DNA of 60,090 bases. It comes from an uncultured Nitrososphaerota archaeon. Its GTDB lineage: Archaea > Thermoproteota > Methanomethylicia > Methanomethylicales > Methanomethylicaceae. Location: assembly GCA_964477685.1 (NCBI GenBank), contig CAYZHK010000001.1:1-60090 (forward strand), given 5' to 3'. Positions 34,317-50,579 of this stretch are shown here, in pieces. The notes below the pieces were generated by a model. The model ran no database searches. It was not told the DNA's origin and saw only the letters and a program-made list of their open reading frames with translations. The position numbers were made by a program, and so were the translations under genes. Every line of letters starts with the position of its first letter. Within the stretch, counting starts at the first letter, position 1.

Positions 34317-34435
34317 GTTAAACTAAACCTCCGGAAATGAACATGAAAAGATTTCACTTCTCCTTAAAAAGGATTGCCTAATTAGTCAATATATTTGGAC
34401 GTGCTAGTTTTATTAGACAGCATAGTAAAGCAGAG

Positions 34436-35164: not shown

Positions 35165-35165
35165 G

Positions 35166-35762: not shown

Positions 35763-37282
35763 GCGAAGGCACCCTTCAGCTTTTCAATGGCCTCAACCGA
35801 TGTTGCTCCCTTTAACTTCACGCGCTTTCCCTGCGACATAATGATTACCCTGCTGTAACCCTTGCCCCTGATAAAATCCCTCAATGCCGCTGTGCCCAAC
35901 GGCGAGTCGTCAGCGCTCTCGAACTGCGAAAGAGGGAAGGTCTGGGCAAGCTCCTCAGGCACGATGCCAAAGGGTCTGCCATAGAAGCAGAAGTGGAACC
36001 TACCCCCCTTGAGTGCCCGCGACGCGGCCTGGTATTCAGCCGAGCGGTTGAATGGCTTTGAAGGGTATGGCATCAGCACCAGCACGTCCTTGGATGGGGG
36101 CTTTATGTACCTCTCCGCTAGCCGGCGGCTGTATCTCATCACCTCGGGGCGATGTCTCGAGATATCATCAAAGAAGAATAGCCCGCGCAGCCTCCCAGCC
36201 GCCACAGGATCCCTCTCCTCCATATACCTTGAATACCTGCGCAGCCTCTTGAAACCCTCGAAGAGCTTGGGGTGCGATCTGCAGCGGATTTCGAGCAATT
36301 CCCAGAGCGAGCCTTCCCTCAATGCCTGCCTGATCCCCCTAAGCTCCTCTTGGGTGGAGTATAGGTTGTGTCTTGCCAGGGCCAGTTCCCTCTCCTTCTT
36401 GGGGAGCCTAGCGAGTTCCTCCTTGGTCGTCCTGCTGCACACCTCGCAGCTGCAGGGGAGCTCAGTCATCTCATCGAGCCTCAGCGTCCTGGCCTGCGTC
36501 ATATATCTGTCGCCCTTGGCGAAGAGCGCATAGGCGGCAGAGTCGAAGAGATCGCAGCCCAGGGCTACCGCGAGCGCCAGCATGGCCGGATGCCCCGCCC
36601 CGAAGAGGTGGAGGGGTCTTTCGGGGGGCAAGTTCTGCTTGGCTGCCACGATCATGTCCACAAGGGCCGGATAATCATACTCCTCCATCACCTGGACCGG
36701 GCTTCCGAGGGGGTGGGTGTCAAAGTCCATCTTGCCCATCACTCTGGCGCTCCTCCTCACTAGGTCTAGGTGCCTGCCTCCCTGGATCGGCCCTGCCCAG
36801 AGCATCGAGCCATCCATCCTCAAGGCAATGCTCTCCTTTGCTCTCCTGGCCGTCTCGGCGACTGTTTTTTTTGCCTCCTCCCTCGTCGCATATCCCCCCG
36901 TTGGCACGTCCAGAATGACGCCCAGGTCACTGCCTATGGCCTCTTGGTATTGGATGATCTCCTTTGGATCCGTCTCGACCCCGCCATAGATGAGCAGCTG
37001 GTATGCCCCTGAATCGGTCATTATGGTGCCATCAAAGCCTGTGAGGGTGTGGACATCGGGCTTCTCCTTCCCAAAATGCTTCAGTATTAGGTAGGAATTG
37101 GTGATTATCATTGGAAACCCAAAATGCTCCCGGAGGTCCGCCGGCGGGATGCAATTCCTGACCGGGTTAACTACGGGCATGAGGTACGGAGTGTCAACAT
37201 TCCCCCGCCTTGTGTGCAGTTCGCCCACTCTGCCCGCAAGGTCTCTCTCCTTAACTTCAAAACTCAATCCGATTCCTCTCAA
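35759..37282 (-). CDS. tgtA: Archaeosine tRNA-guanine(15) transglycosylase, apparently without a C-terminal PUA domain
   Basis: FEVKERDLAGRVGELHTRRGNVDTPYLMPVVNP, TDSGAYQ and the zinc motif CSCEVC. At 507 aa it is shorter than the ~580-aa PUA-containing forms. Confidence 0.85.
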   Translation of the reverse strand: MRGIGLSFEVKERDLAGRVGELHTRRGNVDTPYLMPVVNPVRNCIPPADLREHFGFPMIITNSYLILKHFGKEKPDVHTLTGFDGTIMTDSGAYQLLIYGGVETDPKEIIQYQEAIGSDLGVILDVPTGGYATREEAKKTVAETARRAKESIALRMDGSMLWAGPIQGGRHLDLVRRSARVMGKMDFDTHPLGSPVQVMEEYDYPALVDMIVAAKQNLPPERPLHLFGAGHPAMLALAVALGCDLFDSAAYALFAKGDRYMTQARTLRLDEMTELPCSCEVCSRTTKEELARLPKKERELALARHNLYSTQEELRGIRQALREGSLWELLEIRCRSHPKLFEGFKRLRRYSRYMEERDPVAAGRLRGLFFFDDISRHRPEVMRYSRRLAERYIKPPSKDVLVLMPYPSKPFNRSAEYQAASRALKGGRFHFCFYGRPFGIVPEELAQTFPLSQFESADDSPLGTAALRDFIRGKGYSRVIIMSQGKRVKLKGATSVEAIEKLKGAFA

Positions 37283-37312
37283 AAAGAAAGGGGGGTTGTT
37301 TTTTCCCTCAGG

Positions 37313-37735
37313 CTATGCCTTCTGCTCGACTATGTACTGGTCATATACCTTCTTAACGCGATCAACCATGGGGCCAGTCCCTTCGACTCCATCCACAGTA
37401 ACCCTTATCCTGTCCATCACTGTAACGAAGCCTGCATCCTCATAATACTTGACCATGTTGGGGAAGAGCTTGGAGAGCCTATTCGAAAGCCCCCTCATAT
37501 CAAAGGGTTTCTCCTTCAGAAGGATCTCGGAGACGGAGTCGCCTCTAATAATAGCCCTGGAGTACTTCTCCTTGTCCACAGCAACATCCTCCAGGCAGAG
37601 ACTGAGAGTAGAGGGATCGAAAGCCAACAACCTGCCATCATAAGCCGTACCCCTCGCAGTGATGACCTTGACGTTCTTGTCAACGAAGCCATTCAGCTCG
37701 CCGAGGTAACGGCGTCCACCACCAGAAACACTCAT
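37313..37735 (-). CDS. Lsm/Sm-like RNA-binding protein with a C-terminal extension domain
   Basis: LNGFVDKNVKVITARGTAYDGRLLAFDPSTLSLCLEDV fits the Sm1/Sm2 pattern. 140 aa. Confidence 0.7.
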   Translation of the reverse strand: MSVSGGGRRYLGELNGFVDKNVKVITARGTAYDGRLLAFDPSTLSLCLEDVAVDKEKYSRAIIRGDSVSEILLKEKPFDMRGLSNRLSKLFPNMVKYYEDAGFVTVMDRIRVTVDGVEGTGPMVDRVKKVYDQYIVEQKA

Positions 37736-37984
37736 CTGCTATACACCTACACCATCTAAAGTGAGGTGGGGTTTTTAACCATTTTTCCTTTTATCCGCTT
37801 TTTTTTGCCACTTTCGCCATACCCCCTCTTGCCTGCCCTCCGAGTACATTGGAGGGAATCACTGCTATGAGCTTCGGAATGAGTTTCCCCCTGGTGGCAC
37901 ATACCTTCCCGAAAAAGGTTTAATCCAAACACCACCGAAGGGTGCCAAAATTGTTCGCTTTGGTAACAGTTTTGGTGAACATCC

Positions 37985-38920
37985 ATGAGGCAAACCTGTG
38001 ACGAATGTGGGGTACTCCTGATCCAATCGGAGCAGAGCCTTGTCTGCCCCTCCTGCGGCCTGCTCCACGATTCGACCTGCCAAACCCAGACGCCACTTCC
38101 AGGCTTCAAGCAGAGGCTTGGCAGCCTGATGACCGTGACCAATACCGACCTCTGGCCGGGCGCACTAAGAAATGAGCACACACATGCAAAATACCGTAGG
38201 CTTGGGGATCTGCAGGAATCCATTTACCATGGCTCCTACATCGACATCTTTCGGCTGACTCAAGATCTCCGGAGCATGGCTGAGAGGCTTCACCTCCCCC
38301 CAGAAGTTGTGGATCTCACCTTGAAACAATTCAACGAGATCACATCAAAGGTAAGGAATCCCTACAACAGCCGCACCCTTCTGCTGGCGGTCTGCTTCAC
38401 CAAGGTAACAAGGGAGATGGGCAATCTCGCCCCTGTGAAGATTATCGAGGTTGCGGAGGCATTCGCCTCGCGGGGATACAATTTTTCTCCCCGGCTCCTG
38501 GCAAGAACACTATACTATGCGTCGAACCTGATGCCCATAAAAAAATTCAGGAGTTGTGAAGAATGCGTAGGGAAAGTGCTTCAGCGTCTGGGAGGGGCTC
38601 CCTTCCTGAGGGCAAGGGCAGTGGCCGTTAACCTTGACATCGATGACTACCTCTCCCGTCTGGAAAGACTCTCCGGAGACCTTCTGGAAAGCGTACCCCC
38701 CGTGAAGAGGAGTGGGAGAAACCCCTTCCTGCTTGCCGCCTCATCGGTTTATGTCTCAAATGCTGTTCTATCGAGGGAGAGGGGGATCAACAGTCTGTTC
38801 ACAAAAACAGAATTTTCCAGGGAGGTGGGCATCGCTGAATACACCCTCCGGAGTCATCTCGCAGAAATATTCAACAAAGAGATGGGAAAATGCCTTGTCC
38901 CGCCCTGCCGCTCCCCCTAG
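37985..38920 (+). CDS. Divergent TFIIB/TFB paralogue (Zn ribbon plus two cyclin-like repeats)
   Basis: N-terminal CDECGVLL...LVCPSCGL ribbon. The second repeat shows GRNPFLLAASSVYVSNAV...TKTEFSREVGIAEYTLRSHLAEI, the classical TFB cyclin-fold pattern. Confidence 0.75.
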   Translation: MRQTCDECGVLLIQSEQSLVCPSCGLLHDSTCQTQTPLPGFKQRLGSLMTVTNTDLWPGALRNEHTHAKYRRLGDLQESIYHGSYIDIFRLTQDLRSMAERLHLPPEVVDLTLKQFNEITSKVRNPYNSRTLLLAVCFTKVTREMGNLAPVKIIEVAEAFASRGYNFSPRLLARTLYYASNLMPIKKFRSCEECVGKVLQRLGGAPFLRARAVAVNLDIDDYLSRLERLSGDLLESVPPVKRSGRNPFLLAASSVYVSNAVLSRERGINSLFTKTEFSREVGIAEYTLRSHLAEIFNKEMGKCLVPPCRSP

Positions 38921-38921
38921 G

Positions 38922-39371
38922 CTATGCGGCTATCCCTATCTGGTATTCCCTAATGAGGGACAAATCGTCTGACTCAAGGCTCACGATGAGAACAGCGGAT
39001 ATGAAAGCCCGCTCGCTGCCATTCATGCCCAAAAACCCTGACTGCACGGAGTCCAAAGTCTGGTTCTCCAGGGGCTCCACGCGAATGCCGTCCAGCACCA
39101 ATTGGCACCCCCACAAACTAAGGTATTTCTCCACGTCCGCCTCCCATTCAATTACCATTGGGATGATCTCTTTTGCCGTTGGTTCAGGATCTTCACCTAC
39201 CCATTCATGGAGCCTCATGCAGCAGTCCAGCATGACGTTGTATGAAGCGATTTCCATGGAGCTCAGGCAGGAGATCCGATCCAGCTCGATAGCAGTATTT
39301 GCCACATTGGCCTCGATGGTCAACGCAGTGTGAAGGAGCAAAATAAACATGATTGCCTGCCCTGTGACCAT
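38922..39371 (-). CDS. Pilin-like protein (putative class III signal peptide MVTG/QAIMFILLL)
   Basis: A short N-terminus ends in G and is followed by a hydrophobic helix. It is the last gene of a four-gene overlapping operon beside the T4P ATPase. Confidence 0.5.
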   Translation of the reverse strand: MVTGQAIMFILLLHTALTIEANVANTAIELDRISCLSSMEIASYNVMLDCCMRLHEWVGEDPEPTAKEIIPMVIEWEADVEKYLSLWGCQLVLDGIRVEPLENQTLDSVQSGFLGMNGSERAFISAVLIVSLESDDLSLIREYQIGIAA

Positions 39372-39373
39372 TA

Positions 39374-39709
39374 TTAACCCTTTTTTATTATGTAGAATGT
39401 TCGAATCCCCCCATCACTGCTGATGAAAAAGGTTTGCGATGTCCCATTCTCAGGCGCGACAGTTGAAAAAAACAGACCGCCGACCTCAAAGGAATCCGCT
39501 CCAGGGGGGTGGGAGGTGATGTTCATGCCTGCCCAGCCAGCCATGATTTCCCCCCTCAGGTTTTCGAGGCTGATCTTGTCCATGGCTTCAGCCTTCATTC
39601 CCCCCACCTGGTTGGCCATGACCCCAGCGACTGCATCCAAGAGAATAAGGAGAAATAACGCCCCAATGCCATCCACCAGCGCAACGCTTCCCCTTCCCCT
39701 GCGCCTCAA
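39374..39709 (-). CDS. TadE-like minor pilin candidate
   Basis: MRRRGRG/SVALVDGIGALFLLILL resembles the TadE/TadF N-terminus (G-S-x-x-x-acidic then a hydrophobic helix). The TTG start overlaps the upstream stop (TTGA). Confidence 0.5.
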   Translation of the reverse strand: MRRRGRGSVALVDGIGALFLLILLDAVAGVMANQVGGMKAEAMDKISLENLRGEIMAGWAGMNITSHPPGADSFEVGGLFFSTVAPENGTSQTFFISSDGGIRTFYIIKKG

Positions 39710-39882
39710 GGCGGCACGCTTCCATTTGCAATTCCTGTGGCGTTCACCTGATGCCGCTCCAGCTCTGCCCTGAGCATTTGAGCCTCCTTGAGTGCGTCTC
39801 TAAACGTGTCGGCTACAACCGCGTTAAGGATGATGATCAGAAGGAGAAGTGGGAACAGTACCCATACCTCGACAGAACTCAT
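39706..39882 (-). CDS. 58-aa single-pass membrane protein (not in the ORF track)
   Basis: My translation is MSSVEVWVLFPLLLLIIILNAVVADTFRDALKEAQMLRAELERHQVNATGIANGSVPP*. It has an ATGA overlap with the upstream gene and a TTGA overlap with the downstream gene. Confidence 0.5.
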   Translation of the reverse strand: MSSVEVWVLFPLLLLIIILNAVVADTFRDALKEAQMLRAELERHQVNATGIANGSVPP

Positions 39883-40091
39883 CCAACCCCCTCCAAGCCC
39901 GAGGAACGAGAAGAATTGGTGTCAAATTCTGGTCCAGTAACGCCGCCTGTCTGATTTTGATCAATGTTGATGAACTCAGATGCCTCGGAGTTGATGGCCA
40001 GGGCAGCGCTCATCGCGGAATAGCTCACCATCGAAGCAGAAAAAAGCCAAATGAAGAGAATTATCTCCGCCTCAAGAATCCTGTAGGTCAT
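39879..40091 (-). CDS. 70-aa small protein with an N-terminal hydrophobic helix (pilin-like or membrane)
   Basis: MTYRILEAEIILFIWLFSASMVSYSAMSAALA... It is the first gene of the divergent operon, 26 nt downstream of a palindromic TATA-like element. Confidence 0.5.
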   Translation of the reverse strand: MTYRILEAEIILFIWLFSASMVSYSAMSAALAINSEASEFINIDQNQTGGVTGPEFDTNSSRSSGLEGVG

Positions 40092-40116
40092 TTCTACACC
40101 AATCAGTCTCTGTGTA

Positions 40117-40126
40117 TTTAATTAAA
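40117..40126. promoter_or_regulatory. Palindromic TATA-like element TTTAATTAAA in the divergent intergenic region
   Basis: A perfect 10-nt AT palindrome between the minus-strand start at 40091 and the plus-strand micro-ORF start at 40204. Confidence 0.4.
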
Positions 40127-40203
40127 CGAGCTGACCTCCCCCCTCAACCGCTGAGTCTTTAAGCGCTGCTGACTTGTGGTGTGCTGCATTGTTGTCCCAA
40201 AAA

Positions 40204-40341
40204 ATGGATCACCGTCTTGATTTTGCCATGGCCAATGTCAACAGGCTCTTTGAGCGCGTTGAAAAGATCGAAGAAAGTGTCAATGCCTTGGAGTATGCTC
40301 TCTCTCTTCTTTCCAAGAGGATCGATGAACTTGAAAGGTGA
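40204..40341 (+). CDS. 45-aa coiled-coil micro-ORF preceding the T4P ATPase (not in the ORF track)
   Basis: MDHRLDFAMANVNRLFERVEKIEESVNALEYALSLLSKRIDELER* has clean amphipathic heptads. The alternative frame (the tracked N-terminus of the 620-aa ORF) reads as W/C/P-rich and does not look protein-like. Confidence 0.45.
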   Translation: MDHRLDFAMANVNRLFERVEKIEESVNALEYALSLLSKRIDELER

Positions 40342-42043
40342 ATCGGACGTCCCTTCGTCAGGAATGGCACTGCCCCTAAATTCCATTGCAGATGCCTTTC
40401 CCCCAAACCCGGCAGGTCCAACAATCCTGGAGGGCAATCCTTCCCGCCTCTTTCAGCCGGAGCAGATCCGATATCTTCAGAGGCTGGCTCGGGACCTCAA
40501 GCCATTGATTTTTTCCCTTTCCCGGTCAAGACACCATAGGGTTTCAGCCGACACTCTTCTCGATTCAGATGTCTTTAGCGCCCTGTGGGCAGTCGTCAGA
40601 AATCCCCACTCCGGCATTTCCCGCCTCCATTGTCCGCTCTGCGCTGCCATTGGGCGTTTCAGGATCGAGTATGGTCTTCTTCCCGCATACTCACTCGACA
40701 GGCTGAAATTCATGCTTGAGCCGCAGCCCATTCCCCAAGGCCTGCACTTGCTTGGAGAAGAAATCTACCGGGTCGGCCCATTTGCGATTTTTTTGGGCAC
40801 ATACCGTGGCGAGAAAATCCTGTCAGCCGTTCTCGATGACTTGACCCTTGCCGACCGACAATGCATCTTCGAAACGGGCCTAAAGATACGGGAGGAGGAG
40901 ATGCGCTCAGCCGCATTCACCTCCATTAGGCTCGACGAAATCCTCCTGGAAAGGCAAAAACTGATCGAGGGAATGACGGGGATCAGCAGAAGTCTGGTCT
41001 CCCCTTCCATCTACGCTTCGGTGGGTCTCCTTGGCCTTTACCCGCTGCTAATGGACGACCTTGTGGCTGAATTCTATGTTGACCGCCTCGGATCCTTTGC
41101 CTACCTTGATCACCGCGAACTGGGGCGGTGTCTCTCCTCGGTCTTTGTCACCGATAGCGACATGAGCCGATTGGTTACATTCGCCAGGATGGCATCGGGA
41201 AGAACCATGGACTATGCCACCCCCTCCCTCAGAGCATCCCTCAGAACCCTTGACTTCAGTGCCCGCATTTCTGTGGATGGCCCTCCACTCTCCCTCGAGG
41301 GCATGTCACTCTCATGCCGCAAGTTCTTCCTCTCTCCCTTGACCGTCGAAGACCTTGTTTCAAACGGCACAATCCCCCCTCAGCTAGCCTCCTTTCTATT
41401 GGCCCAGATGCTTGAGCGGCACAACATCACAATATACGGCGAGAGCGGCTCTGGCAAGACCACTCTTGCCGTGGCCCTCGATCTTATCACGCCGACTGCG
41501 TGGAGGAAATTTTCTGTCGAGTCCGACGTTGCGGAGAATGTGTCCCAGTCTCTGATGGGCTACCACCAGGTGAGGCTGCTCTCGGCAGGAACGACACCCG
41601 CGGAGCAGGCCAAGAGAACCCACATACTCAATAGCCTGCTGCACAAATCACCGGATTTCATCTTCTTGGGGGAGGTCCTGTCCCGAGAGGACAGCGTCTC
41701 CCTTTTTCAGATATTGGCGGCCGGCCTCAAATGCATCCACACTGTCCATGCTGAGACGGCGGAGGGATTGCTCAGGCGCTGGGTCTATCAGCACGGCATT
41801 CCGCCCTCCTCCCTCCATAGCCTTGACTTGCTGATCCAGATGGAGAAGCGGACGGTCGCAGAGAGGGTCGAAAGACGGGTGGTGAGGGTCTCTAGGGTTG
41901 AGAAGGACCTCGGGTCTATTGAAATTCCCCGCCTTTCGGACATCTACCGCCTAGGCGGTTCCGCCCTGCTTGGCGCGGAAGCAGGGTCGGCCTGTGCCGC
42001 AATGGGGGGAAGCAGGATCCAGGGGCAATCGGGGGGATCCTAA
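40325..42043 (+). CDS. Type II/IV secretion-family ATPase (TadA/CpaF/ArlI/EpdL-like) of a type IV filament system
   Basis: Walker A IYGESGSGKTTL, PDFIFLGEVLSREDS (GE-x-R/S-x-x-E box), His box CIHTVHAETAEG. Start is at ATG 40325 or 40364 rather than the tracked 40181. Confidence 0.8.
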   Translation: MNLKGESDVPSSGMALPLNSIADAFPPNPAGPTILEGNPSRLFQPEQIRYLQRLARDLKPLIFSLSRSRHHRVSADTLLDSDVFSALWAVVRNPHSGISRLHCPLCAAIGRFRIEYGLLPAYSLDRLKFMLEPQPIPQGLHLLGEEIYRVGPFAIFLGTYRGEKILSAVLDDLTLADRQCIFETGLKIREEEMRSAAFTSIRLDEILLERQKLIEGMTGISRSLVSPSIYASVGLLGLYPLLMDDLVAEFYVDRLGSFAYLDHRELGRCLSSVFVTDSDMSRLVTFARMASGRTMDYATPSLRASLRTLDFSARISVDGPPLSLEGMSLSCRKFFLSPLTVEDLVSNGTIPPQLASFLLAQMLERHNITIYGESGSGKTTLAVALDLITPTAWRKFSVESDVAENVSQSLMGYHQVRLLSAGTTPAEQAKRTHILNSLLHKSPDFIFLGEVLSREDSVSLFQILAAGLKCIHTVHAETAEGLLRRWVYQHGIPPSSLHSLDLLIQMEKRTVAERVERRVVRVSRVEKDLGSIEIPRLSDIYRLGGSALLGAEAGSACAAMGGSRIQGQSGGS

Positions 42044-42083
42044 GATCAGCGGGCCCAGGGAAACAGGTGGGAAGGGCGAGACC

Positions 42084-42566
42084 ATGGATTCCAGGTGGCG
42101 GAATGATTTCATGCTCCTGGACGTCTTCTCCACAGCATTCATATTCACCGGCTCCGCAGAAATGGCCCTCCAGGAGACCGTCCATAGCGGGGCATCCGCC
42201 GAGCCCCTCAAAGTCACGATGACTGGGCTGAGGAACGGCAGCAGTTTCGAGCATGCCCTAGGGGAATCGGGGATCCCAAGGGATCTCTCCGACTGGTTTT
42301 ACATGGTCTGTTCTGGATCTGCCAAAGACTCCCAATTGATGCTCGATTCCTGGAAAGCAGAGGCATCCAAATGCCTGGCCAAGACTGAAGACGCAACCTC
42401 CTTGGTCATCACCTTCTCCTGCCTTCTTCCGGTAGTCTTGGCCTCCCTTCTCCTGATGGTTGGGTACTTGAGCTCCCTTCTGGCCTTCTCCATTTCCTTT
42501 ATGACCATTGTTGGCTACTGGCTGGTGAGCAGATGGATGAGACGGTTGAACCGCCCATTAAACTGA
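42084..42566 (+). CDS. T2SSF-type platform protein, single domain (TadB/EpdJ-like)
   Basis: A soluble helical region is followed by hydrophobic helices (LVITFSCLLPVVLASLLLMVGYL..FSISFMTIVGYWLV). It lies immediately after the ATPase. The Met at 42084 is preferred because 41970 overlaps the ATPase. Confidence 0.55.
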   Translation: MDSRWRNDFMLLDVFSTAFIFTGSAEMALQETVHSGASAEPLKVTMTGLRNGSSFEHALGESGIPRDLSDWFYMVCSGSAKDSQLMLDSWKAEASKCLAKTEDATSLVITFSCLLPVVLASLLLMVGYLSSLLAFSISFMTIVGYWLVSRWMRRLNRPLN

Positions 42567-43339
42567 TTCTGAAGCCCCACCCTGTGTCGCTGGGGCTCTC
42601 CGGACTCTTCTACTTGGCAATATGCCTGCAGGGGTCAATGCAATACGGCGTCCCGATGGCGCTAGCCTACTTCATGCTTCTGAATTTGGCCATAAGGTCA
42701 AAATCACTCACCATAGACTTTGGCACAGAGATCGGCGACTCTTTCCTGGCGTCATTCGCAAATAACTTGGCCTCCCTTGGTCCTGAGGAGGCCTTCTCCA
42801 AGGCGCTCAAACGCTTTTCCTCACCTCCGCTTAGGTGTGCCCTTGCCAAGGTGAGAAATGGAGTCCCCATCGCCAAAGCACTGCTTTCCATTGAGGTCCC
42901 TTCAAAATCTGAAAGTACTCTTCTTACCGCAATCTCCGCAGCCCTCTCCTATGGATCCGATGAGGCATCCAATAGGCTGCACAGGTACATGCTCTATCGC
43001 CAAGAACGGACTAGGCTAATCGCAGAATACAAGGGGAAGATGGCCGTCCTATCCCTCCGCCTGAAGGTTCTCTCCGCAATCTCAGCCGCATCCCTTGCGG
43101 TGATCGCCTTCGCCTCCCCCCTCCTGAGCTTCCTCTCCTCAGCAATTGAAGCCCAGACAAAAACCATCAATGGCTGGCCACTGCCCGCAATCGCCCTCTT
43201 CTCTGTGTCGATTCTCAGCCCACTCCTCTATTCGAAGACAGTGCCAGATACCAGCAGCGGCAGAATCACAGCGGCCTGTGCCATCCTGTACCTGTGCGTT
43301 TTTCTCCTCCTCAGCCTGACGATTGGCTGGCGATTTTAA
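42533..43339 (+). CDS. T2SSF-type platform protein, single domain (TadC/EpdK-like)
   Basis: N-terminal TM pair, central soluble helical domain, C-terminal TM helices. Position and topology match the second platform half. Confidence 0.55.
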   Translation: MDETVEPPIKLILKPHPVSLGLSGLFYLAICLQGSMQYGVPMALAYFMLLNLAIRSKSLTIDFGTEIGDSFLASFANNLASLGPEEAFSKALKRFSSPPLRCALAKVRNGVPIAKALLSIEVPSKSESTLLTAISAALSYGSDEASNRLHRYMLYRQERTRLIAEYKGKMAVLSLRLKVLSAISAASLAVIAFASPLLSFLSSAIEAQTKTINGWPLPAIALFSVSILSPLLYSKTVPDTSSGRITAACAILYLCVFLLLSLTIGWRF

Positions 43340-43366
43340 ATACCCCTGGCTGATGGGTGGGTCAAC

Positions 43367-43582
43367 ATGGCTTCCAAATCGCGGAAAGGTTCGCCGTTGG
43401 TGGAAGAGGGGCTCCTCTTGGGCCTATCCATTGTCACTCTGACCGTCGTCCTGACCATAATCGTGGGCCTTCTCACCGGGGTCCAGAATACATTCAATCT
43501 ATCGATATTCAATGCGGACGGCTTTACGGGCCAACTCCAAACTTCCATTGACCAGATACTGCAATTTTTCAGGATAGGGTAA
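43367..43582 (+). CDS. Flp-like prepilin (class III signal peptide)
   Basis: MASKSRKG/SPLVEEGLLLGLSIVTLTVVLTIIVGLL has a basic leader ending in G, acidic residues at +5/+6 (compare the Flp G-x4-EY motif), then a hydrophobic helix. 71 aa. Confidence 0.65.
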   Translation: MASKSRKGSPLVEEGLLLGLSIVTLTVVLTIIVGLLTGVQNTFNLSIFNADGFTGQLQTSIDQILQFFRIG

Positions 43583-45417
43583 TGTTGCCCATTCTACCCT
43601 ATTCCCTTTTTCTATTACTCCTCGCCTTGTTCATAGGCAGTTACCTCTGGTGGAACCCCCTCCTCTTCCTTCTTTCCATGGGCATTTCCACCCTACCGCT
43701 GGTTTATGCGGCGCTTAGGGGAAATGCCAAGGGCCATGCCAATTTCGATGTCAAGACGATGCTGGATAGACATCCGATGTTGGAGTTCCACGGGAAGAAA
43801 TACTCCGCGCTGGCTGTGAAGATCGAATCACAAAGCCAAGAATCGCACGAAAGGTATGAGAAGGAGATCCGCTACGACCGTCTCCTGCGATTTTCCGAAG
43901 CCCTCAATTCCCTAGGCGTCCCCTCCGCCTATGTGACATTCTCATGCATGAAGCAGGCACCCTTGGGCCTGATGGATCCTGCCGTCACAAACATGTCCTT
44001 CATTGTTGCTTTCCCCCAAGGCAGAAACGAAGCTGAGCTCGCTGAAAAATCAGATGCTATCCTCAGGCAAATGGAGGGCCTTTGCCACCTCGCCCTGCCA
44101 GATTGCCACACAAAGCGGATGGGTGCATCTGAAGCGATGCTGCTGCTAGGAAAACCACTACTCCCAGCCCTGCAGGGGATAATGCCCAACCTCCTCTCAG
44201 GGAAGTCTGAAGAAACCATCTGCCCGATCCCTTCTCCTGCCATTGCAACAGGCCAGGAGCCATCTTACCTCTTCAACACCCCTGCCGATCCTGCGGCGCG
44301 AGAGAATGGGCCCTTTCTTGGCTGGATATTCTCCGGCGGGAACAGGGTGGCCCCCCTCAACCTCTCGCTGGAGGATATGCGGAGGCATACAGCAATTTTC
44401 GGCTGCACTGGCGCTGGCAAGTCCACAACTGCCATCTCGCTAGCCCTGCGCTTAGCCACAAGCGGGATCCCTCTCCTGATCTTGGATTGGCACGACGAGC
44501 ATTCTGAGGTAGTCGAGCGCTCGGGAGGCAAGGTATTTGCTTTGGGCTCTAGGGAGCTAGGGATCACCATAAACCCATTGGCCCTCTTGTCAAACAGGGA
44601 TATGGCAACCAACATCGAGCTGGCGTCCGACACATTTGCGCAGACATTTCAATTCACTCCGCCACAGTCATACATGTTCCGTGAAGCATTGAAATCCTGC
44701 TACAACAGCAAACTGAACCCATCCCTCACCGATATCATAAACGAGCTCAGTTTACTCCCCATCCGATCTAGCTGGGACCATGAGACAAGAATGGCCCTGA
44801 TGAGGCGGCTCAAACATTTCACAGAGGGGAGCTGTGGACTTGCCGTAAATGGCCCCGACTCGCTCCCCCGAGCAGAGCTCTTCCGGGGCATGGTATCCCT
44901 AGATCTGAGCCCCCTCAAGGACGTCAGCTCGAGAGCCATCTTGGCCAACCTTATCCTCAAGGTCATCTACGACCAGGCAAACAGCAGGGGTGAGCAGCCA
45001 GCCCTCAGGCATATCCTCTTCATCGAGGAGGCCCAGAATGTCCTGCCGCCTAGGCGCATGGATGCGCCCCAATCCATTGGCGAGCGCATACTTGCGGAGG
45101 TCCGGAAGTACGGCGAAGGGGTTGTGATCATAAGCCAGTTCCCCTCGGCCGTCTCATTGGATGTCATTAAGAACACCTCTGTCAGAATCATTCATGCCAT
45201 CAGGGCGGGCGATGATGCCAAGGTTCTGGGCGAAGCCACTTCCCTTGACATTGCCCAGAGGGCGTCGCTCAGCGCCCTCTCCCAAGGAGAGGCCATAGTC
45301 AATCTCCCCCTCCGTCCGGCAAACTATTTCGTAAGGGTCGTGCCGGACCCCCTATTGGAAACCCCTGCCTTCAACCGATCAGTTCTCGAAGGCGCCCCTC
45401 GCCCTCCAACCGTGTGA
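43582..45417 (+). CDS. Membrane-anchored DUF87/HerA/VirB4-family P-loop ATPase
   Basis: Two N-terminal TM helices, then HTAIFGCTGAGKSTTAISLA (Walker A), IPLLILDWHDEH, RHILFIEEAQNV (Walker B) and EVRKYGEGVVIISQFPS. The start shares one nt with the pilin stop (TAATG). Confidence 0.75.
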   Translation: MLPILPYSLFLLLLALFIGSYLWWNPLLFLLSMGISTLPLVYAALRGNAKGHANFDVKTMLDRHPMLEFHGKKYSALAVKIESQSQESHERYEKEIRYDRLLRFSEALNSLGVPSAYVTFSCMKQAPLGLMDPAVTNMSFIVAFPQGRNEAELAEKSDAILRQMEGLCHLALPDCHTKRMGASEAMLLLGKPLLPALQGIMPNLLSGKSEETICPIPSPAIATGQEPSYLFNTPADPAARENGPFLGWIFSGGNRVAPLNLSLEDMRRHTAIFGCTGAGKSTTAISLALRLATSGIPLLILDWHDEHSEVVERSGGKVFALGSRELGITINPLALLSNRDMATNIELASDTFAQTFQFTPPQSYMFREALKSCYNSKLNPSLTDIINELSLLPIRSSWDHETRMALMRRLKHFTEGSCGLAVNGPDSLPRAELFRGMVSLDLSPLKDVSSRAILANLILKVIYDQANSRGEQPALRHILFIEEAQNVLPPRRMDAPQSIGERILAEVRKYGEGVVIISQFPSAVSLDVIKNTSVRIIHAIRAGDDAKVLGEATSLDIAQRASLSALSQGEAIVNLPLRPANYFVRVVPDPLLETPAFNRSVLEGAPRPPTV

Positions 45418-45952
45418 CCCAATTCACCGAACCCGCAGGCAACCCTCCCCTGCCCTTGATCGCCCCAAGAACATCCTCTGCAGTCTCCTCAGGAGTCAGC
45501 TCGGAGGTGTCGACCTCCCTGACCGCCTCCTTGCCGAAAGCCTCCACTGCGGCAATTAGGCACGCGTCCAGGAGCTCGGCCTCCACATTTTCTTTGACTT
45601 TCTCGACGGAATAGCCCCTTTTTCCCAACCTCTCCCCCAGTATGAAGGGATTTGACCTGAGCACAACCGCAATCTTCACATATTCCTTTGGAACAAGCTC
45701 GCCAAAGTGCCCCTCGATGACCACAATCCCATCCTTCTCGCCCAAGATTTTGCCCAGTGCCCTCCTCAGAATCCCCTCCTTCACCAGCGTGCTGCCCCTC
45801 GCCGAGTCCTTGGTGGAGAGGGCGCCAGCCTCTGCAGCAACTAGGTTGAGGCTCAATAATTTTGCGCAAAGCCTGGCAGCCACAAGCTCCGCAACGGAAG
45901 ACTTCCCTGTTCCAGGAGACCCAGTTATCACGATCGCCCTCTTTTTTTTCAT
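45371..45952 (-). CDS. Adenylate kinase-like NTPase (AK6/Fap7 family)
   Basis: IVITGSPGTGKSS P-loop and VVLRSNPFILGERLGKRGYSVEKVKENVEAE, typical of Fap7. Confidence 0.75.
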   Translation of the reverse strand: MKKKRAIVITGSPGTGKSSVAELVAARLCAKLLSLNLVAAEAGALSTKDSARGSTLVKEGILRRALGKILGEKDGIVVIEGHFGELVPKEYVKIAVVLRSNPFILGERLGKRGYSVEKVKENVEAELLDACLIAAVEAFGKEAVREVDTSELTPEETAEDVLGAIKGRGGLPAGSVNWVTRLEGEGRLRELIG

Positions 45953-46034
45953 GCAAAAGCCTCGAGAACATCGTGAAGTCTACCCCTGCCCGATAAAAAC
46001 ACTTCCCTCCCGTTGTCGGTGGGGAAGATTGGGG

Positions 46035-46053
46035 AAAAAAATAATAAAAAAAG
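46035..46053 (-). terminator. Oligo-T tract downstream of the thermosome gene (may also hold the Fap7 promoter)
   Basis: The minus strand reads TTTTTTTATTATTTTTTT about 30 nt after the thermosome stop at 46084. Confidence 0.45.
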
Positions 46054-46083
46054 AGAATGGATGGTCTGCCTGAGCCGGCTTCC

Positions 46084-47733
46084 TTAGTCGAACTCGCCCG
46101 CTCCGCCTTCGCCAGGCTTCTTGGGCATCCCACCGCCGGCCGCTCCGCCTTTCGCAGAGGCTATAACATCATCGATCCTCAATATCATGGATGCCGCCTC
46201 TGTGGCAGACTTGATGGCCTGCACCTTCACCGCCAGTGGCTCGATGACGCCAGAGTTCTCCATGTTCCCTGTCCTTCCCTGAAGGACGTTGATTCCTGCC
46301 CACTTCTCGCCCTTCTCATGCATGGCTCTGAGCTCAACAAGGATGTCTATTGGGTCAAGTCCTCCGCTCTCGGCAAGTGTCCTCGGAACTGCCTCAAGGC
46401 TGTCAGCAAATGCTTCAATGGCAAGCTGCTCCCTGCCGCCGACGCCGGCTGCATAGTCCCTGATGTTCTTGGCAGCCTCCAGCTCCGGAGCTCCGCCGCC
46501 GGCAACGACCCTGCCATCCTCTATCACGTCCGCGACGACGCAGAGTGCATCATGGAGGGTCCTTTCGGCCTCGTCCACCAGTCTCATGAGCCCCCCTCTT
46601 ATCAGGATGCTCACTGCCTTGGGGCTCTTGCACCCCTCTACGAAGGTCATCTTGTCCTCGCCGTACTTCTCCTCCTTGACAACCTTGGCCTCTCCCAAAT
46701 CGGCAGCTGTCAGGTCATCAAGGTTTGTGACTATCTTGGCCCCAGTCGCCCTCGCAAGCTTCTCCATGTCCGACTTCTTGACGCGCCTTATGCCTACAAT
46801 GGACTCCTTCGCCATATAGTGCTGGGCTATATCATCGACCCCCTTCTGGCAAAAGACCACATTGGCCCCAGACTTCTTCACCTTCTGGACCATGTCCTTA
46901 AGGAGCTTCTCCTCCTCCTCAATGAAGGCCTTCATCTGGGTCGGGTCGCTGATCCGGATCTCCGCATCGAATTCGGTCTTCTCGATCTCGAGTGGGGCAT
47001 CCAGCAGAGCTACCTTTGCATTGTCCACCACTTTCGGCATTGCTGGGTGGACAACTTCCTTATCCACAATCACACCGTAGACCAGCTTGCTGTCGGTAAG
47101 GCTGCCACCCTGCTTCTTGACGATCTGTATGTATTCAATGTCAGCAACATACCCCTCGCCCCTCTTTTCCGAGACCTGCTTGACCGCCTTGACTGCAATG
47201 TCGCCGAAGAAGTCCTGAACTCCGGCGGATGCCTTGCTGTTCATCGCTGTGTAGGCAACTTTCTTCATGACCTTTTCGTCATCGATACTGATTGGCATGG
47301 CTATCTTGGAGAGGACGTCCATGGTCTTCTCTGTGGCTTTCTTGTAACCCTGCACGATCAGCGTGGGGTGAATGTTCTTCTCAACGAGTTCTTCAGCCTT
47401 CTTCAGCAGCTCACCGGCAAGGATTACCGATGTTGTGGTGCCGTCCCCGACTTCCTCGTCCTGGGTCTTTGAAACCTCGACCATCATCTTCGCGGCCGGG
47501 TGCTGTACCTCGATATCGCCAAGGATCGTGGCACCGTCGTTTGTTACCGTCACGTCTCCAAGGGTATCGACAAGCATCTTGTCCATCCCCTTTGGACCCA
47601 ACGTTGTCCTGACTGCCTCGGCAACAGCCCGGGCAGCCATCATGTTGACCCTCTGCGCCTCTTTTCCCTGAGTGCGCTGGGTTCCTTCCTTCAGGATCAA
47701 TACTGGAACTCCGCCAAGTTGTGCGTTAGACAT
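46084..47733 (-). CDS. ths: Thermosome subunit (group II chaperonin)
   Basis: [36 protein letters not shown]. 549 aa. Confidence 0.95.
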
Positions 47734-47775
47734 AGAATTACACCTGTGAATTGTAAAAAGAAATTTTTTACACTT

Positions 47776-47783
47776 CTATATAA
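47776..47783 (-). promoter_or_regulatory. TATA-like box upstream of the thermosome gene
   Basis: The minus strand reads TTATATAG about 45 nt upstream of ATG 47733. Confidence 0.35.
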
Positions 47784-47833
47784 CTATTTCCCTATTGGGG
47801 GCTAAAAGACGCGGAATGGATTCCCGGCTTCGA

Positions 47834-48064
47834 CTATACCCCCAGCTTGGTGAGTGCTATAAGCTTCCTGCTGGCCATCTTTACATCCTCGGCATTCACG
47901 GTTTTCCTGCCAGCATGCTTTGCAAGGGCAATTGATTCGCGGGCAATGTCAAGTGCCAGGGATTCGATGACCTCCCTCAGGGCCTCGGCCCCCTCTTCGC
48001 TCACCCTTTCCGCACCTGCTTTCCTCATAATTCTGTCCATGGGAGAAATGGCTATATCCGTCAT
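47834..48064 (-). CDS. Archaeal histone (HMf family) with a short C-terminal tail
   Basis: ISPMDRIMRKAGAERVSEEGAEALREVIESLALDIARESIALAKHAGRKTVNAEDVKMA is a histone-fold pattern. Confidence 0.85.
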   Translation of the reverse strand: MTDIAISPMDRIMRKAGAERVSEEGAEALREVIESLALDIARESIALAKHAGRKTVNAEDVKMASRKLIALTKLGV

Positions 48065-48090
48065 GTCCTTCGCCGCTTTTACATACTCCC

Positions 48091-48104
48091 ATAAAATATA
48101 AAAT
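48091..48104 (-). promoter_or_regulatory. TATA box upstream of the histone gene
   Basis: The minus strand reads ATTTTATATTTTAT, 27-40 nt upstream of ATG 48064, implying a short leader or none. Confidence 0.5.
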
Positions 48105-48193
48105 CTTTCTTGGTGTACTGCCCAGGGCCAACCGGAATAAACGGGATATCACAAATTTTAAATTGGGGTACCTGCTTCGGGTGAGATGTATCG

Positions 48194-48652
48194 GTGACCA
48201 TATTGGGCAAGGTTCGCATCGGCAAGGTAAAAAGCGTATCAAATGAGCTGGTCCTCAAGTACCCGACGGTCTTCTCGACCGATTTTGAGGTCAACAAGAA
48301 GCTCGTTTATCAATACTCTGACATAAGGAGCAAGCACCTGAACAACAGAGTCGCAGGCTACATAACGCGGCTGCTGGTCTCCCAGAAGAAACGCGAGGAA
48401 GCCCTCAAGCTTGAGGAGGCGGAGATCGCCTCAAAGGAAGCCGAAGCGCAGGCTCCAGCAATGGAAATGGCCACCGAGGAGGTCCCAGCCGCAGCGCCGC
48501 AGGGGGAAACCCCACCTGCCGCCCCTGAAGCGGCCAAGGAGCAGGCGGAGGGCACAAAGGCCCCTGAAGAGGCAGAGGGCGAGGCCAAAGGCAAGGCCGA
48601 ACCTGCCAAAGAGCCAGAAGGGCAGGCTAGCGACCAAGGCAAAACGGGGTAA
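48194..48652 (+). CDS. rps17e: 30S ribosomal protein S17e with a ~85-aa low-complexity C-terminal extension
   Basis: GKVRIGKVKSVSNELVLKYPTVFSTDFEVNKKLV...RSKHLNNRVAGYITRL is the S17e core. The TTG at 48203 would give the usual MGKVR N-terminus. The tail is E/A/K/P-rich. Confidence 0.8.
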   Translation: MTILGKVRIGKVKSVSNELVLKYPTVFSTDFEVNKKLVYQYSDIRSKHLNNRVAGYITRLLVSQKKREEALKLEEAEIASKEAEAQAPAMEMATEEVPAAAPQGETPPAAPEAAKEQAEGTKAPEEAEGEAKGKAEPAKEPEGQASDQGKTG

Positions 48653-48830
48653 GTGCCACTGTCTTCCTGCGGAGCAGCAGGTTCTCGTTAGGGCATTGGC
48701 CAAGCTCCACAATGATTGGACAATGCTTTTTATCCAGAGCCTACAGATTGAACCTTGGAATGAAGTGGTTGACCTGCGCTGAGGCGACAATGAAGAACCG
48801 GCACCTCCACTGACCATTTCCAACGGGCAA

Positions 48831-49703
48831 GTGATTCTGATGCCACGGGGCTTCACATCTAGGATTCGAGTCCTTCCCTTGGAGGAGATACGCCCCCACG
48901 AGGAATACGACCCCCAGATACTCCTGACCATCACAAATTCCCTTATGATAGAGCGGGTCATCCACGATCCAATCCTCGTGGCCTCTGAGAATAATGTGAT
49001 CCTTGATGGCACGCACAGGTACTGGGCGCTAACAAGGCTCGGCTGCAGGTCCGTTCCTGTCGCCCTCTACGACTACAGCTCGCCAGAGGTCTCTATAGGT
49101 TGCTGGTACCGGTGCCTGTCTCGGCCGCCGGCCATCGGGTGGGCGAGCCTGATGAATACCCCTCCCGGGTCCTTGGACGAGGGCGTAAGGGCAGTGGTCC
49201 AAAGGGAGGGCCTCCTGAGCTTACTCTTCAGGAACAGATCCTTCACTGTGGCACCCAAGAACTTTGATATTTTTGAGGCCTACCGCCTGCTGTCCTTCTT
49301 CGAGGGTGCCATGAGGGGATTGGCTACTGGAATCAGCTTCGCCACCGAGCATGATGCTTTGGAGCGGCTTAGGCAGGGCGAGGTGGAAGCGCTGCTGGCC
49401 CCCCCGCCAATAAAAAAGTCTGAGGTCATTCAGGCAGCCAGGACTGGGCAGCTCTTCCCCATCAAATCGTCTCGCCACGTGATTCGGTCCAGGCCCATCG
49501 GCATCGATGTCCCACTCAGCTGGCTCATGAGCAAGCCTGAGGACCTTGCCCCCAAGGTCGAATCCAAGCTTTCATCGGGCAGCTTCAGGGTTCTTCCCAA
49601 AGGCACGATCATCAGCGGGAGGAGGTACGAAGAGGAGATTTATATCTTTGAACCATCTACCTTTGGTGGGGGCCATCAGGATGGCGGTGAAGGTCAAGAT
49701 TAG
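48831..49703 (+). CDS. ParB/sulfiredoxin-fold N-terminal domain protein
   Basis: LPLEEIRPHEEYDP...ILDGTHRYWAL matches the ParB-like nuclease/Srx motif. The ATG at 48840 is a likely start. Confidence 0.6.
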   Translation: MILMPRGFTSRIRVLPLEEIRPHEEYDPQILLTITNSLMIERVIHDPILVASENNVILDGTHRYWALTRLGCRSVPVALYDYSSPEVSIGCWYRCLSRPPAIGWASLMNTPPGSLDEGVRAVVQREGLLSLLFRNRSFTVAPKNFDIFEAYRLLSFFEGAMRGLATGISFATEHDALERLRQGEVEALLAPPPIKKSEVIQAARTGQLFPIKSSRHVIRSRPIGIDVPLSWLMSKPEDLAPKVESKLSSGSFRVLPKGTIISGRRYEEEIYIFEPSTFGGGHQDGGEGQD

Positions 49704-49965
49704 GTACCTCGCGGTCCTAAGGGGGCTGTCCGATGAACCCGAGCGCGAGCAGACCATCAAAGGAAAATCACTGAGGTCGCTCATCGAGACCCTCCGGAGG
49801 TCCGAAAAGGCCCCACTGAAGGCAAGGCTCTTCACCGACACCTCGGTGAGGCCGGATGTCCTCATCTTCATCAATGATGCCGAGGCTGACCTTCTGGGCG
49901 GCCCAAAGGCAGAACTTAAAGATGGGGACGAGGTAACGTTCTTACCGTCGGTCCATGGTGGCTAG
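49681..49965 (+). CDS. MoaD/ThiS-family ubiquitin-like small protein (SAMP-like) ending in GG
   Basis: MAVKVKIRYLAVLRGL...GDEVTFLPSVHGG*, 94 aa. The tracked 139-aa ORF start at 49546 overlaps the ParB-like gene. Confidence 0.75.
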   Translation: MAVKVKIRYLAVLRGLSDEPEREQTIKGKSLRSLIETLRRSEKAPLKARLFTDTSVRPDVLIFINDAEADLLGGPKAELKDGDEVTFLPSVHGG

Positions 49966-49976
49966 GGGTTTACCAA

Positions 49977-50579
49977 ATGAAGATCCTTGCACTTACCTGG
50001 TCGCAAATCGAGACATCGCTACTGGCCCTCGCAGATCGCATCAACGAGAGCGGCTATCGCCCTGACATGATAGTGGGTGTTGCCAGGGGAGGCTGGGTCG
50101 TGGCAAGGGTCCTATCCGACCTCCTGAACGTCTCCGACCTTGCGTCCATCAAGATCGAGTTCTACAGGGGTGTCGACGAGAAGGTTAAGGTTCCTAGGAT
50201 CACCCAACCAATATCCGCCTCGCCCAAGGGGAAGATCATACTGGTTGCGGATGACGTGGCGGACACCGGTGAAAGCCTGATGCTGGCCCAGCGTCACCTG
50301 CTGGACCAGGGGGCGAGGGCCCTTAGGGTGGCCACAATCCATTACAAGCCTTTGTCCAAATTCAAGCCCGATTACTATTACCTGGAGACCGATGACTGGA
50401 TAATGTACCCATGGGAAATCAGGGAGACGATGGATTACCTTGTCAAGATCTGGCGGGACGAGACCACCGACCCCGAGCAGCTGAAGGAGAGGCTGGCATC
50501 CACTGGCATATCCAGGGAGATAATAGACCGCTTTGTAAATGGGCAGACCTCGGGGAGAAAGACGGATGCCAACCATTGA
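49977..50579 (+). CDS. Purine phosphoribosyltransferase (Hpt/Gpt-like)
   Basis: PRPP-binding motif KIILVADDVADTGESL. Confidence 0.8.
   Translation: MKILALTWSQIETSLLALADRINESGYRPDMIVGVARGGWVVARVLSDLLNVSDLASIKIEFYRGVDEKVKVPRITQPISASPKGKIILVADDVADTGESLMLAQRHLLDQGARALRVATIHYKPLSKFKPDYYYLETDDWIMYPWEIRETMDYLVKIWRDETTDPEQLKERLASTGISREIIDRFVNGQTSGRKTDANH

Follow-up and report, generated by a model that had tools for sequence, protein, structure and literature searches.

A small pilin-like protein and a CedD-like membrane ATPase encoded together in a Tad/Flp-like filament cluster of an uncultured Nitrososphaerota archaeon

Why would the gene for a small pilin-like protein run directly into the gene for a membrane-anchored ATPase? 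The question is raised by a 60,090-nucleotide stretch of DNA from an uncultured Nitrososphaerota archaeon of the Methanomethylicaceae (GenBank assembly GCA_964477685.1, contig CAYZHK010000001.1, positions 1–60,090; the whole stretch is called the window below), in which a 71-amino-acid (aa) Flp-like small pilin candidate is followed on the same strand by a 611-aa ATPase. The pilin-ATPase pair is the 3' end of the operon in a Tad/Flp-like type IV filament cluster, and the closest characterised relative of the ATPase is CedD, an ATPase of Sulfolobales DNA import. We propose, with a probability of about 50%, that the cluster is a filament-plus-translocase machine for DNA uptake or DNA exchange.

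A pilin-ATPase gene pair and its conservation

By direct reading, the smaller open reading frame (ORF) occupies positions 43367–43582 of the forward strand and ends with TAA at 43580–43582, and the ATPase ORF (43582–45417, forward strand) extends from ATG at 43582–43584 to TGA at 45415–45417. The two codons overlap in a TAATG (43580–43584, 1 nt shared), as the original prediction had it. ATG 43582 is the correct ATPase start, because the protein that begins there includes two hydrophobic helices and its residues P6 and F17 are nearly invariant. In orthologous loci the junction ranged from approximately −11 to +27 nt, varying with the candidate start codon chosen; a 4-nt ATGA overlap and a 3-nt spacer were the commonest arrangements, and spacers of 0–5 nt were also seen. 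The single-nucleotide overlap itself is therefore not conserved among orthologues, but the tight junction (at most ~+27 nt) is, and this geometry makes translational coupling of pilin and ATPase plausible.

Hidden Markov models (HMMs) of twelve cluster proteins were run over 36 ATPase-anchored loci; the genome scan used a profile of a 12-sequence ATPase alignment, a 33-sequence version being too divergent. The pilin gene lay directly ahead of the ATPase gene in 34 of the 34 ATPase-anchored loci with upstream sequence, which confirms that orthologues of the ATPase are encoded beside pilins. Close homologues (45–84% identity) bear the names of Methanosuratincola, Methanomethylicaceae and Verstraetearchaeota, which places the window in a Methanomethylicia archaeon, and the loci include the complete genomes of Methanosuratincola isolates LWZ-6 and LCB70. 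The gene order in Methanomethylicia is: TFB paralog, small transmembrane (TM) protein genes, coiled-coil ORF, TadA-like secretion ATPase (Pfam T2SSE), first platform-like protein, second platform protein, pilin, ATPase, and a convergent Fap7-like gene. The core order T2SSE, platform, pilin, ATPase recurs in metagenome-assembled genomes (MAGs) labelled Bathyarchaeota/Bathyarchaeia, Brockarchaeota, Thermoprotei and 'Nitrososphaerota'; their ATPases share only 33–42% identity with that of the window, and wherever the contig extends far enough the TFB paralog stands upstream.

Three further loci, found via the T2SSE ATPase, bear on how firmly the pair is tied to the rest of the cluster. In the first (L037) the whole cluster order is kept and the ATPase ORF is degenerate. 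The second (L039) carries TGT, LSm, RpbG, TFIIB, T2SSE, two membrane proteins, pilin (KKASPLLEEG) and convergent Fap7; there is no DUF87 ATPase at this position, and the pilin remains. In the third (L040) a pilin (EKASPLLEEG) stands directly upstream of a TM-less DUF87 ATPase (P0066-like), 7 kb from the T2SSE gene, with a TFIIB gene and a Peptidase_A24 gene near the cluster. From these arrangements we conclude that the pilin-ATPase pair behaves as its own unit.

Could the adjacency and the overlaps be merely inherited gene order, with no functional link between pilin and ATPase? The flanking housekeeping genes are indeed syntenic in the same genomes. However, the two genes lie on the same strand with junctions of −11 to +27 nt in 34/34 loci, although the ATPases are only 30–40% identical across lineages, and the pair was kept together even when translocated away from the cluster in L040. 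We consider this explanation extremely unlikely.

Anatomy and relatives of the ATPase

The ATPase has two N-terminal TM helices (TM1, 43591–43644, residues 4–21; TM2, 43657–43719, residues 26–46; helices of an AlphaFold2 (AF2) model), an alpha/beta N-domain (~43777–44181, residues ~66–200 of the model), a Walker A motif GCTGAGKST (44401–44427, residues 274–282) and a Walker B motif ILFIEEAQN (45013–45039, residues 478–486), all on the forward strand. Because the Walker A motif starts at residue 274, ~270 aa stand ahead of the P-loop. The model has a mean predicted local distance difference test (pLDDT) value of 76, with a P-loop core at ~270–586 and the last 18 residues disordered. Two hydrophobic N-terminal helices were seen as Kyte-Doolittle peaks in nearly all full-length orthologues, so the TM helices that had been claimed for this protein are both predicted and conserved. 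Walker A, Walker B and the other catalytic motifs were invariant in 33 ATPase sequences.

Pfam recognised only DUF87/HerA in the protein (DUF87, E 2e-15). Among curated NCBIfam models CedD was the best by a wide margin (173.3 bits against a cutoff of 600, covering residues 258–586 only); the other scores include HerA (62 of 800), TraC (34), VirB4 (TIGR00929; 23.9 of 643), CedB (17.6), TraD (13 of 366) and TrbE (11–13). CedB had been listed among the comparators; the closest named family is CedD instead. By sequence against PDB, HerA matched at 1.7e-21, DotL at 4e-6 and VirB4 at 3e-5, and a Foldseek search with the model returned HerA at E 8e-18 and the VirB4 C-terminal domain at a template-modelling (TM) score of 0.74. 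The nearest relatives are HerA/FtsK-superfamily translocases, not unrelated NTPases.

A profile of the ATPase family, searched against 1.8 billion representatives, gave 360 proteins below 1e-30. The top ~30 were ~500–730 aa long; most aligned over the N-domain as well, and many had a pair of TM helices at the N-terminus. At around rank 60 came bona fide CedD proteins, which score 610 and 723 bits with the CedD model. Aligned to bona fide CedD by hhalign, the family gave a probability of 100%, E 2e-38 and 31% identity over 318 columns, which correspond to the ATPase domain. Neither HMMER nor hhalign aligned the N-domains of the window ATPase and CedD; for one sister protein, P0071, the alignment to the CedD model begins at position 16. 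A neighbour-joining tree was uninformative under midpoint rooting; rooted on CedD references, it placed the pilin-linked ATPases in a group apart, as an indication only, since its deep branches are short and unsupported. DUF87, the CedD model, the AF2 model, Foldseek and hhalign together point to a membrane-anchored CedD-like ATPase of the HerA/FtsK superfamily with a homologous domain and intact Walker A and B motifs. On these comparisons we class it as a CedD-like relative and not as a CedD equivalog, because 173 bits is far below the equivalog cutoff (NF053655, 600 bits) and the N-domains do not align.

Other assignments were rejected. Membership of VirB4/TrbE was dismissed, as only the C-terminal ATPase fold is common and the VirB4 score is 23.9 of 643 bits. 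A HerA repair helicase was dismissed at 62 against 800 bits, the neighbours being pilus genes and Fap7. For an origin in a mobile element, a plasmid search gave only remote DUF87 relatives of 26–27% identity.

Work published in 2025 introduced CedD as a HerA/FtsK ATPase bound to the membrane and indispensable for DNA import by S. acidocaldarius and Sa. islandicus; the protein was taken to be VirD4-like or to contribute part of a VirB4 N-domain (PMC11823120, PMC11868833). The layout of the window protein had been likened to VirB4/TrbE or coupling proteins rather than to soluble HerA. This stands insofar as CedD, the best match, is VirD4-like or like the VirB4 N-terminal domain; it does not stand for the fold search, in which HerA and VirB4 matched about equally.

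Does the ATPase then act on the filament rather than on DNA, as a VirB4-like pilin dislocase or as an assembly or retraction motor that extracts or returns pilin? We know of no PilT in archaea. A pilin gene followed by that of a HerA/VirB4-superfamily ATPase mirrors the order virB2-(virB3)-virB4, but the pilin here looks type IV/Flp-like, unlike VirB2-type pilins, which form a two-TM hairpin and carry a Sec signal. Similarly, the ATPase domain can be superposed about equally well on HerA and on the VirB4 C-terminal domain (TM score 0.74), whereas VirB4 profiles score very low (24 against 643 bits). The tight stop/start junction is kept in all related loci and the pair stays joined in L040 away from the TadA-like ATPase, both of which would suit a motor devoted to the pilin; the cluster, however, already has a dedicated TadA/CpaF-type assembly ATPase. 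As for CedD, a likeness of its N-domain to part of that of VirB4 has been reported (PMC11868833), but in mutant assays the protein was needed for DNA import and not for cellular aggregation (PMC11823120, Table 1). On balance, an action on the filament is possible but rather unlikely.

The small protein and the other genes of the cluster

The 71-aa protein consists of a basic leader (MASKSRKG), the sequence SPLVEEG, a hydrophobic helix and a C-terminal amphipathic helix. It belongs to a conserved protein family: HMM matches with E 1e-5 to 1e-43 were found in 35 related loci, which hold ~27 distinct sequences of 61–87 aa, and residues S9, L11, E13, E14 and L17 are invariant. A conserved family with invariant residues in 35 loci means that the ORF is more than chance. 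In a motif alignment of 13 diverse members, the leader ahead of [KR][GA] is basic and variable in length, and conservation begins exactly at [KR][GA]; the consensus then reads S-[PQ]-L-[VIL]-E-E-[GA]-[LM]-L, followed by ~22 hydrophobic residues and the amphipathic helix. Thus the protein has the short basic leader, the G/A at −1, the E at +5, the hydrophobic helix and the length (below ~90 aa) of a pilin, and a TadA-type ATPase and TadB/TadC-type platform proteins are co-encoded, the latter with weak E-values. The N-terminus has the pattern of a putative class III (prepilin-type) signal peptide in the Flp G↓xxxxE arrangement. The name 'Flp-like pilin' given at first is accordingly supported by the motif (G/A↓SPLVEEG, E at +5) and by operon context, but not by any profile match; 'Flp-like' here refers to motif, size and operon context only, because no Pfam or PDB profile recognises the protein.

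This leaves room for a VirB3-like membrane adaptor that tethers or regulates the ATPase, its N-terminus being an interaction motif, an explanation that is compatible with the proposed DNA machine. The lack of a pilin profile match agrees with it, and so does the L040 arrangement, where the ATPase is TM-less and yet a small TM protein stays directly upstream, and where the two genes have stayed together at a distance from the pilus ATPase. Against an adaptor stand the onset of conservation right at [KR][GA], behind a basic leader of variable length, as in a processed class III signal peptide, together with an invariant E at +5; a second cluster protein with a parallel motif; and L039, in which the small protein stands beside platform genes without any such ATPase. 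We judge an adaptor unlikely.

The second protein with a parallel motif is encoded in a divergent group of four small N-terminal-TM proteins (149, 111, 58 and 70 aa; 38922–40091, reverse strand), each of which forms a family across the Methanomethylicia loci and none of which has a Pfam match. The N-terminus of the 111-aa member (39374–39709, reverse strand) reads RG-SVALVDG and parallels RG-SPLVEEG of the pilin, so these proteins may be minor pilins. Next to them lies a TFIIB/TFB paralog of 311 aa with a Zn ribbon and cyclin repeats (37985–38920, forward strand), whose profile (11 orthologues) matched TFIIB/TFB structures in PDB with E 5e-20 to 7e-17. The paralog occupies the same position in Methanomethylicia, Bathyarchaeia and Thermoprotei loci and heads the cluster in every lineage examined.

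The remaining genes of the operon are on the forward strand. A 55-aa coiled-coil ORF (40174–40341) is conserved (HMM E 1e-11 to 1e-30) and overlaps the start of the next gene by 17 nt; Pfam returned only weak coiled-coil matches for it, with FlaC_arch at E 0.058. The TadA/CpaF/FlaI-type secretion ATPase (40325–42043; Pfam T2SSE E 4e-13; Walker A GESGSGKTT), whose start was set from the 100%-identical public protein P0201, scored under cutoff with the NCBIfam models for FlaI (6e-19), the TadA family (1e-17) and VirB11 (1e-15), and its remote matches were FlaI and bacterial CpaF. The first platform-like membrane protein (41970–42566) belongs to an orthologous family present in all Methanomethylicia loci and, as read from the sequences, has C-terminal TM helices and an RxGxxP-type helical domain. 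Its longest ORF would overlap the T2SSE gene by 74 nt, and its start is probably ATG 42084; the protein is shorter than its Methanosuratincola orthologues, and their N-terminal TM segment was absent from all frames of the window. The second platform protein (42533–43339) was recognised by Foldseek and profile as having a GspF/PilC/TadC-type cytoplasmic domain. With an AF2 model from a shallow alignment (9 sequences, pLDDT 62), the top 10 PDB matches were all OutF, EpsF or PilC cytoplasmic domains, at E of only 0.2–1, with probabilities of 0.66–1.0 (at least 0.90 for nine of the ten) and TM scores of 0.54–0.62 for the nine isolated-domain entries. A sequence profile matched GspF at E 0.11, on the RxGxPxxxAL motif, and neither platform-like protein had a Pfam match.

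At its 3' end the ATPase gene meets a convergent gene for a Fap7/AK6-like nucleotide kinase (45371–45952, reverse strand; Pfam AAA_18 E 3.5e-19; NCBIfam PRK03839 116 bits against a cutoff of 152). By direct reading the two genes overlap by 47 nt (45371–45417), an overlap that had been singled out as unusually long for a tail-to-tail pair; it is both real and conserved. The Fap7-like gene is convergent to the ATPase gene in nearly all related loci, and the overlap measured 44, 47 or 56 nt in every Methanomethylicia locus and 6–86 nt in several other lineages; it was absent in three loci. Within the overlap it is the Fap7 C-terminus that is conserved (…NW…LEKEG…); the ATPase tail varies, is S/P/A-rich and is disordered, with pLDDT values under 50 from residue 594 on. 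The overlap is therefore probably tolerated rather than functional, a low-constraint ATPase tail entering the 3' end of its neighbour. A locus of a different CedD-like clade (L044, 1589–1633) has an ATPase/Fap7-like kinase convergent overlap of 45 nt, and true CedD (L041) overlaps a thermosome gene by 4 nt instead.

The frame of the ATPase was split or degenerate in L021 (7755–9793), L034 (7215–9191) and L037 (11001–12965), which could be due to frameshift, assembly error or a pseudogene. Elsewhere in the window (26653–29286, forward strand), an 877-aa protein has approximately nine predicted TM helices and two AAA (Cdc48-type) domains; this membrane-anchored double AAA ATPase is unusual and appears unrelated to the pilus cluster.

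Chromosomal neighbourhood and a candidate DNA-uptake apparatus

The cluster sits in a syntenic block (window 33057–50579) of beta-CASP, PAC2, PHP, TGT, LSm, the cluster itself, Fap7, thermosome, histone, S17e, Urm1-type, PRT and CGI-121 genes. The block is common to MAGs of Methanomethylicia, Bathyarchaeia, Brockarchaeota and Thermoprotei (L007, L023, L027–L036, L039, L041) and overlaps the Urm1 neighbourhood described for S. acidocaldarius. Synteny in these lineages extends to the housekeeping flanks (TGT, LSm, thermosome, histone, S17e), and the plasmid search gave only relatives of 26–27% identity, so we conclude that the cluster is chromosomal and vertically inherited, not mobile. Around the window ATPase stand Fap7, thermosome, histone and S17e, with the Urm1-type gene just past S17e in orthologous loci. 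The locus of true CedD (L041) has S17e, Urm1, a 125-aa protein, CedD and a convergent thermosome gene, then a 164-aa Zn-ribbon TFB-like protein and, further on, RpbG; no pilin gene stands ahead of CedD there. Because thermosome, S17e and Urm1-type genes surround each, the window ATPase and Sulfolobales CedD occupy the same chromosomal neighbourhood, although not strictly collinearly.

TFB3 of Sulfolobales is a short paralog that activates the ups and ced genes after DNA damage. In S. acidocaldarius its gene, tfb3 (saci_0665), is two genes from cedD (saci_0667), with the thermosome beta gene thsB (saci_0666) between them and Urm1 in the neighbourhood (PMC5817253, PMC4569737, PMC11823120), and the L041 arrangement matches this tfb3/thsB/cedD order. 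We do not claim that the 311-aa TFB paralog of the window is a TFB3 orthologue: homology could be traced only for the Zn ribbon (hhalign probability 63%), and the HMM of the paralog gave no match to the Sulfolobales TFB3-like protein.

A cluster lodged within a deeply conserved core block of several TACK lineages (TGT, LSm, RpbG in L039, TFIIB paralog, Fap7, thermosome, histone, S17e) might have a housekeeping or transcription-linked role, such as FtsK-like chromosome handling during division or the 'transcription-related pathway' suggested for type IV pilus (T4P) subclade 4D, and be neither a pilus nor a DNA-exchange device. Makarova et al. (2016) suggested that the TFIIB-linked 4D systems might serve some function other than a pilus (PMC4858521, section 14); they described them as an ATPase, a diverged TadC-like protein and a TFIIB homolog with RPB8 nearby, with 'no potential pilins'; the preprint of Sivabalasarma and Albers (2026) repeats the description (10.64898/2026.04.22.720090, section 13). 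The window cluster resembles 4D in its secretion ATPase, diverged TadC-like protein(s) and TFIIB homolog, and L039, where RPB8/RpbG is adjacent, fits particularly; the likeness is by description. 4D was described as free of pilins and secreted proteins, whereas the window cluster encodes a CedD-like ATPase, a small pilin that is conserved and additional pilin-like proteins; a HerA/CedD-type ATPase is mentioned in neither 4D paper (PMC4858521; 10.64898/2026.04.22.720090). The T2SSE family of the window does not conserve the Cys-rich N-domain that 4D ATPases are reported to have. The presence of pilin-like proteins with class-III-like N-termini and of a platform fold and an assembly ATPase that look intact argues against a housekeeping role, as do the action of CedD in DNA import and the possibility of its in-frame deletion in S. 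acidocaldarius (PMC11823120). We therefore regard such a role as improbable.

Building on the observed anatomy of the genes, the families to which they belong, an operon structure that is conserved and catalytic motifs that are intact, and by analogy with known systems, we favor the machine for DNA uptake or exchange. A class III signal peptidase would cut the short basic leader after [KR][GA], and the TadA-like ATPase and platform proteins would build a short filament or pseudopilus by polymerising the ~63-aa subunit together with the minor pilin-like proteins. Beside this filament the CedD-like ATPase, as a membrane-anchored hexamer, would use ATP to pump DNA across the cytoplasmic membrane. 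The outcome would be an apparatus for DNA uptake or cell-to-cell exchange, like the bacterial Com pseudopilus with its DNA translocase; an alternative parallel is the Ups pilus with the Ced system of Sulfolobus. The tight junction would keep synthesis of pilin and ATPase coupled, and the adjacent TFB paralog possibly controls the apparatus.

Several observations count against this proposal. The archaeal class III cleavage motif differs from the Ser at +1 and Pro at +2 of the pilin. Pfam gave no family at E ≤0.1 for the 71-aa protein and no pilin family among the 13 members, a PDB profile search gave no pilin match, and the Flp_Fap profile did not recognise the protein. The window membrane proteins that were checked included no prepilin peptidase, and no channel protein of CedA/VirB6 or ComEC type was evident in the cluster. 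As to the ATPase, its function would be transferred from CedD at 31% identity and 173 against 600 bits, and the fold search cannot split HerA from VirB4, both being matched about equally. The modules also occur separately: L039 has a pilin without the ATPase, and no pilin gene precedes CedD of the Sulfolobales type or the ATPase of another CedD-like clade (two other CedD-like representatives were on contigs too short for gene context). Finally, since the flanks are syntenic, the conserved adjacency may partly be inherited gene order.

Comparison with known systems bears on which parts are familiar. The closest known counterparts of the window ATPase are CedD (Saci_0667 / SiRe_1715; NF053655) and TedD of Thermoproteales. 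CedD is alike in its HerA/FtsK P-loop domain, its two N-terminal TM helices followed by an N-domain, a 3' end convergent with the next gene and a neighbourhood of thermosome, S17e, Urm1 and a TFB-type gene. In contrast, the N-domain of the window protein is longer (Walker A at 274 against ~235) and unaligned, and its gene follows a pilin inside a type IV filament operon, whereas cedD is a stand-alone gene working with the type IV secretion system-like CedA/A1/A2/B system (PMC11823120). With the bacterial Tad/Flp pilus the cluster has in common a small pilin (mature ~63 aa), a G↓xxxxE-type N-terminus, a CpaF-like ATPase, two separate half-size platform proteins and extra pilin-like proteins sharing the processing motif. 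It differs from Tad/Flp in the lack of a Flp_Fap or T2SSF Pfam match, in E rather than Y at +6, in having no secretin or TadZ and no peptidase gene found in the window, and in the added HerA/FtsK-type ATPase, which has no Tad counterpart. VirB4/TrbE, VirD4 and HerA are of the same ATPase superfamily fold, with N-terminal membrane anchoring as in VirD4, and the gene order recalls virB2-virB4; but no VirB6-like or VirB2-like genes are present, as they would be in type IV secretion, and the ATPase has no NurA, Mre11 or Rad50 neighbours, unlike HerA. Pili and DNA transfer have been linked elsewhere: Flp pili are reported to be required for DNA uptake in Micrococcus luteus (PMC4322843), and in Thermus, as cited in PMC11868833, DNA transfer involves a type IV pilus and HerA-like ATPases.

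The CedD-like ATPase, the Tad-like filament system and the 4D layout are thus of known kinds. The conserved coupling of the CedD-like ATPase to the filament cluster, the small pilin and the neighbourhood common with Sulfolobus cedD were described in no paper that we found: the CedD papers (PMC11823120, PMC11868833) mention neither a filament operon nor these lineages, and a literature search for pili in Methanosuratincola found none. A broader reading, which we offer as tentative, joins a Flp-type filament and a CedD-type translocase into a single ancestral Thermoproteota (TACK) apparatus for DNA uptake or exchange, under a dedicated TFB paralog. Were this so, 'pilin-less' 4D systems would have an overlooked small pilin; the stand-alone cedD of Sulfolobales beside thsB/tfb3 would be the remnant of a cluster whose filament module disappeared or gave way to Ups and Ced; and the small pilins may be akin to the archaeal ancestor from which bacterial Flp arose.

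To our knowledge, Sulfolobales (Ups and Ced) are the only archaea whose DNA exchange is understood, with partial understanding for Thermoproteales (Ted). If the proposal is true, the cluster would be a concrete candidate route of DNA uptake or exchange in the abundant lineages Methanomethylicia, Bathyarchaeia, Brockarchaeota and other uncultured Thermoproteota. It would also give the enigmatic T4P subclade 4D a testable function and the tfb3-thsB-cedD arrangement of Sulfolobus an evolutionary origin. Methanosuratincola strains are now in culture, and experimental work on the cluster is therefore feasible.

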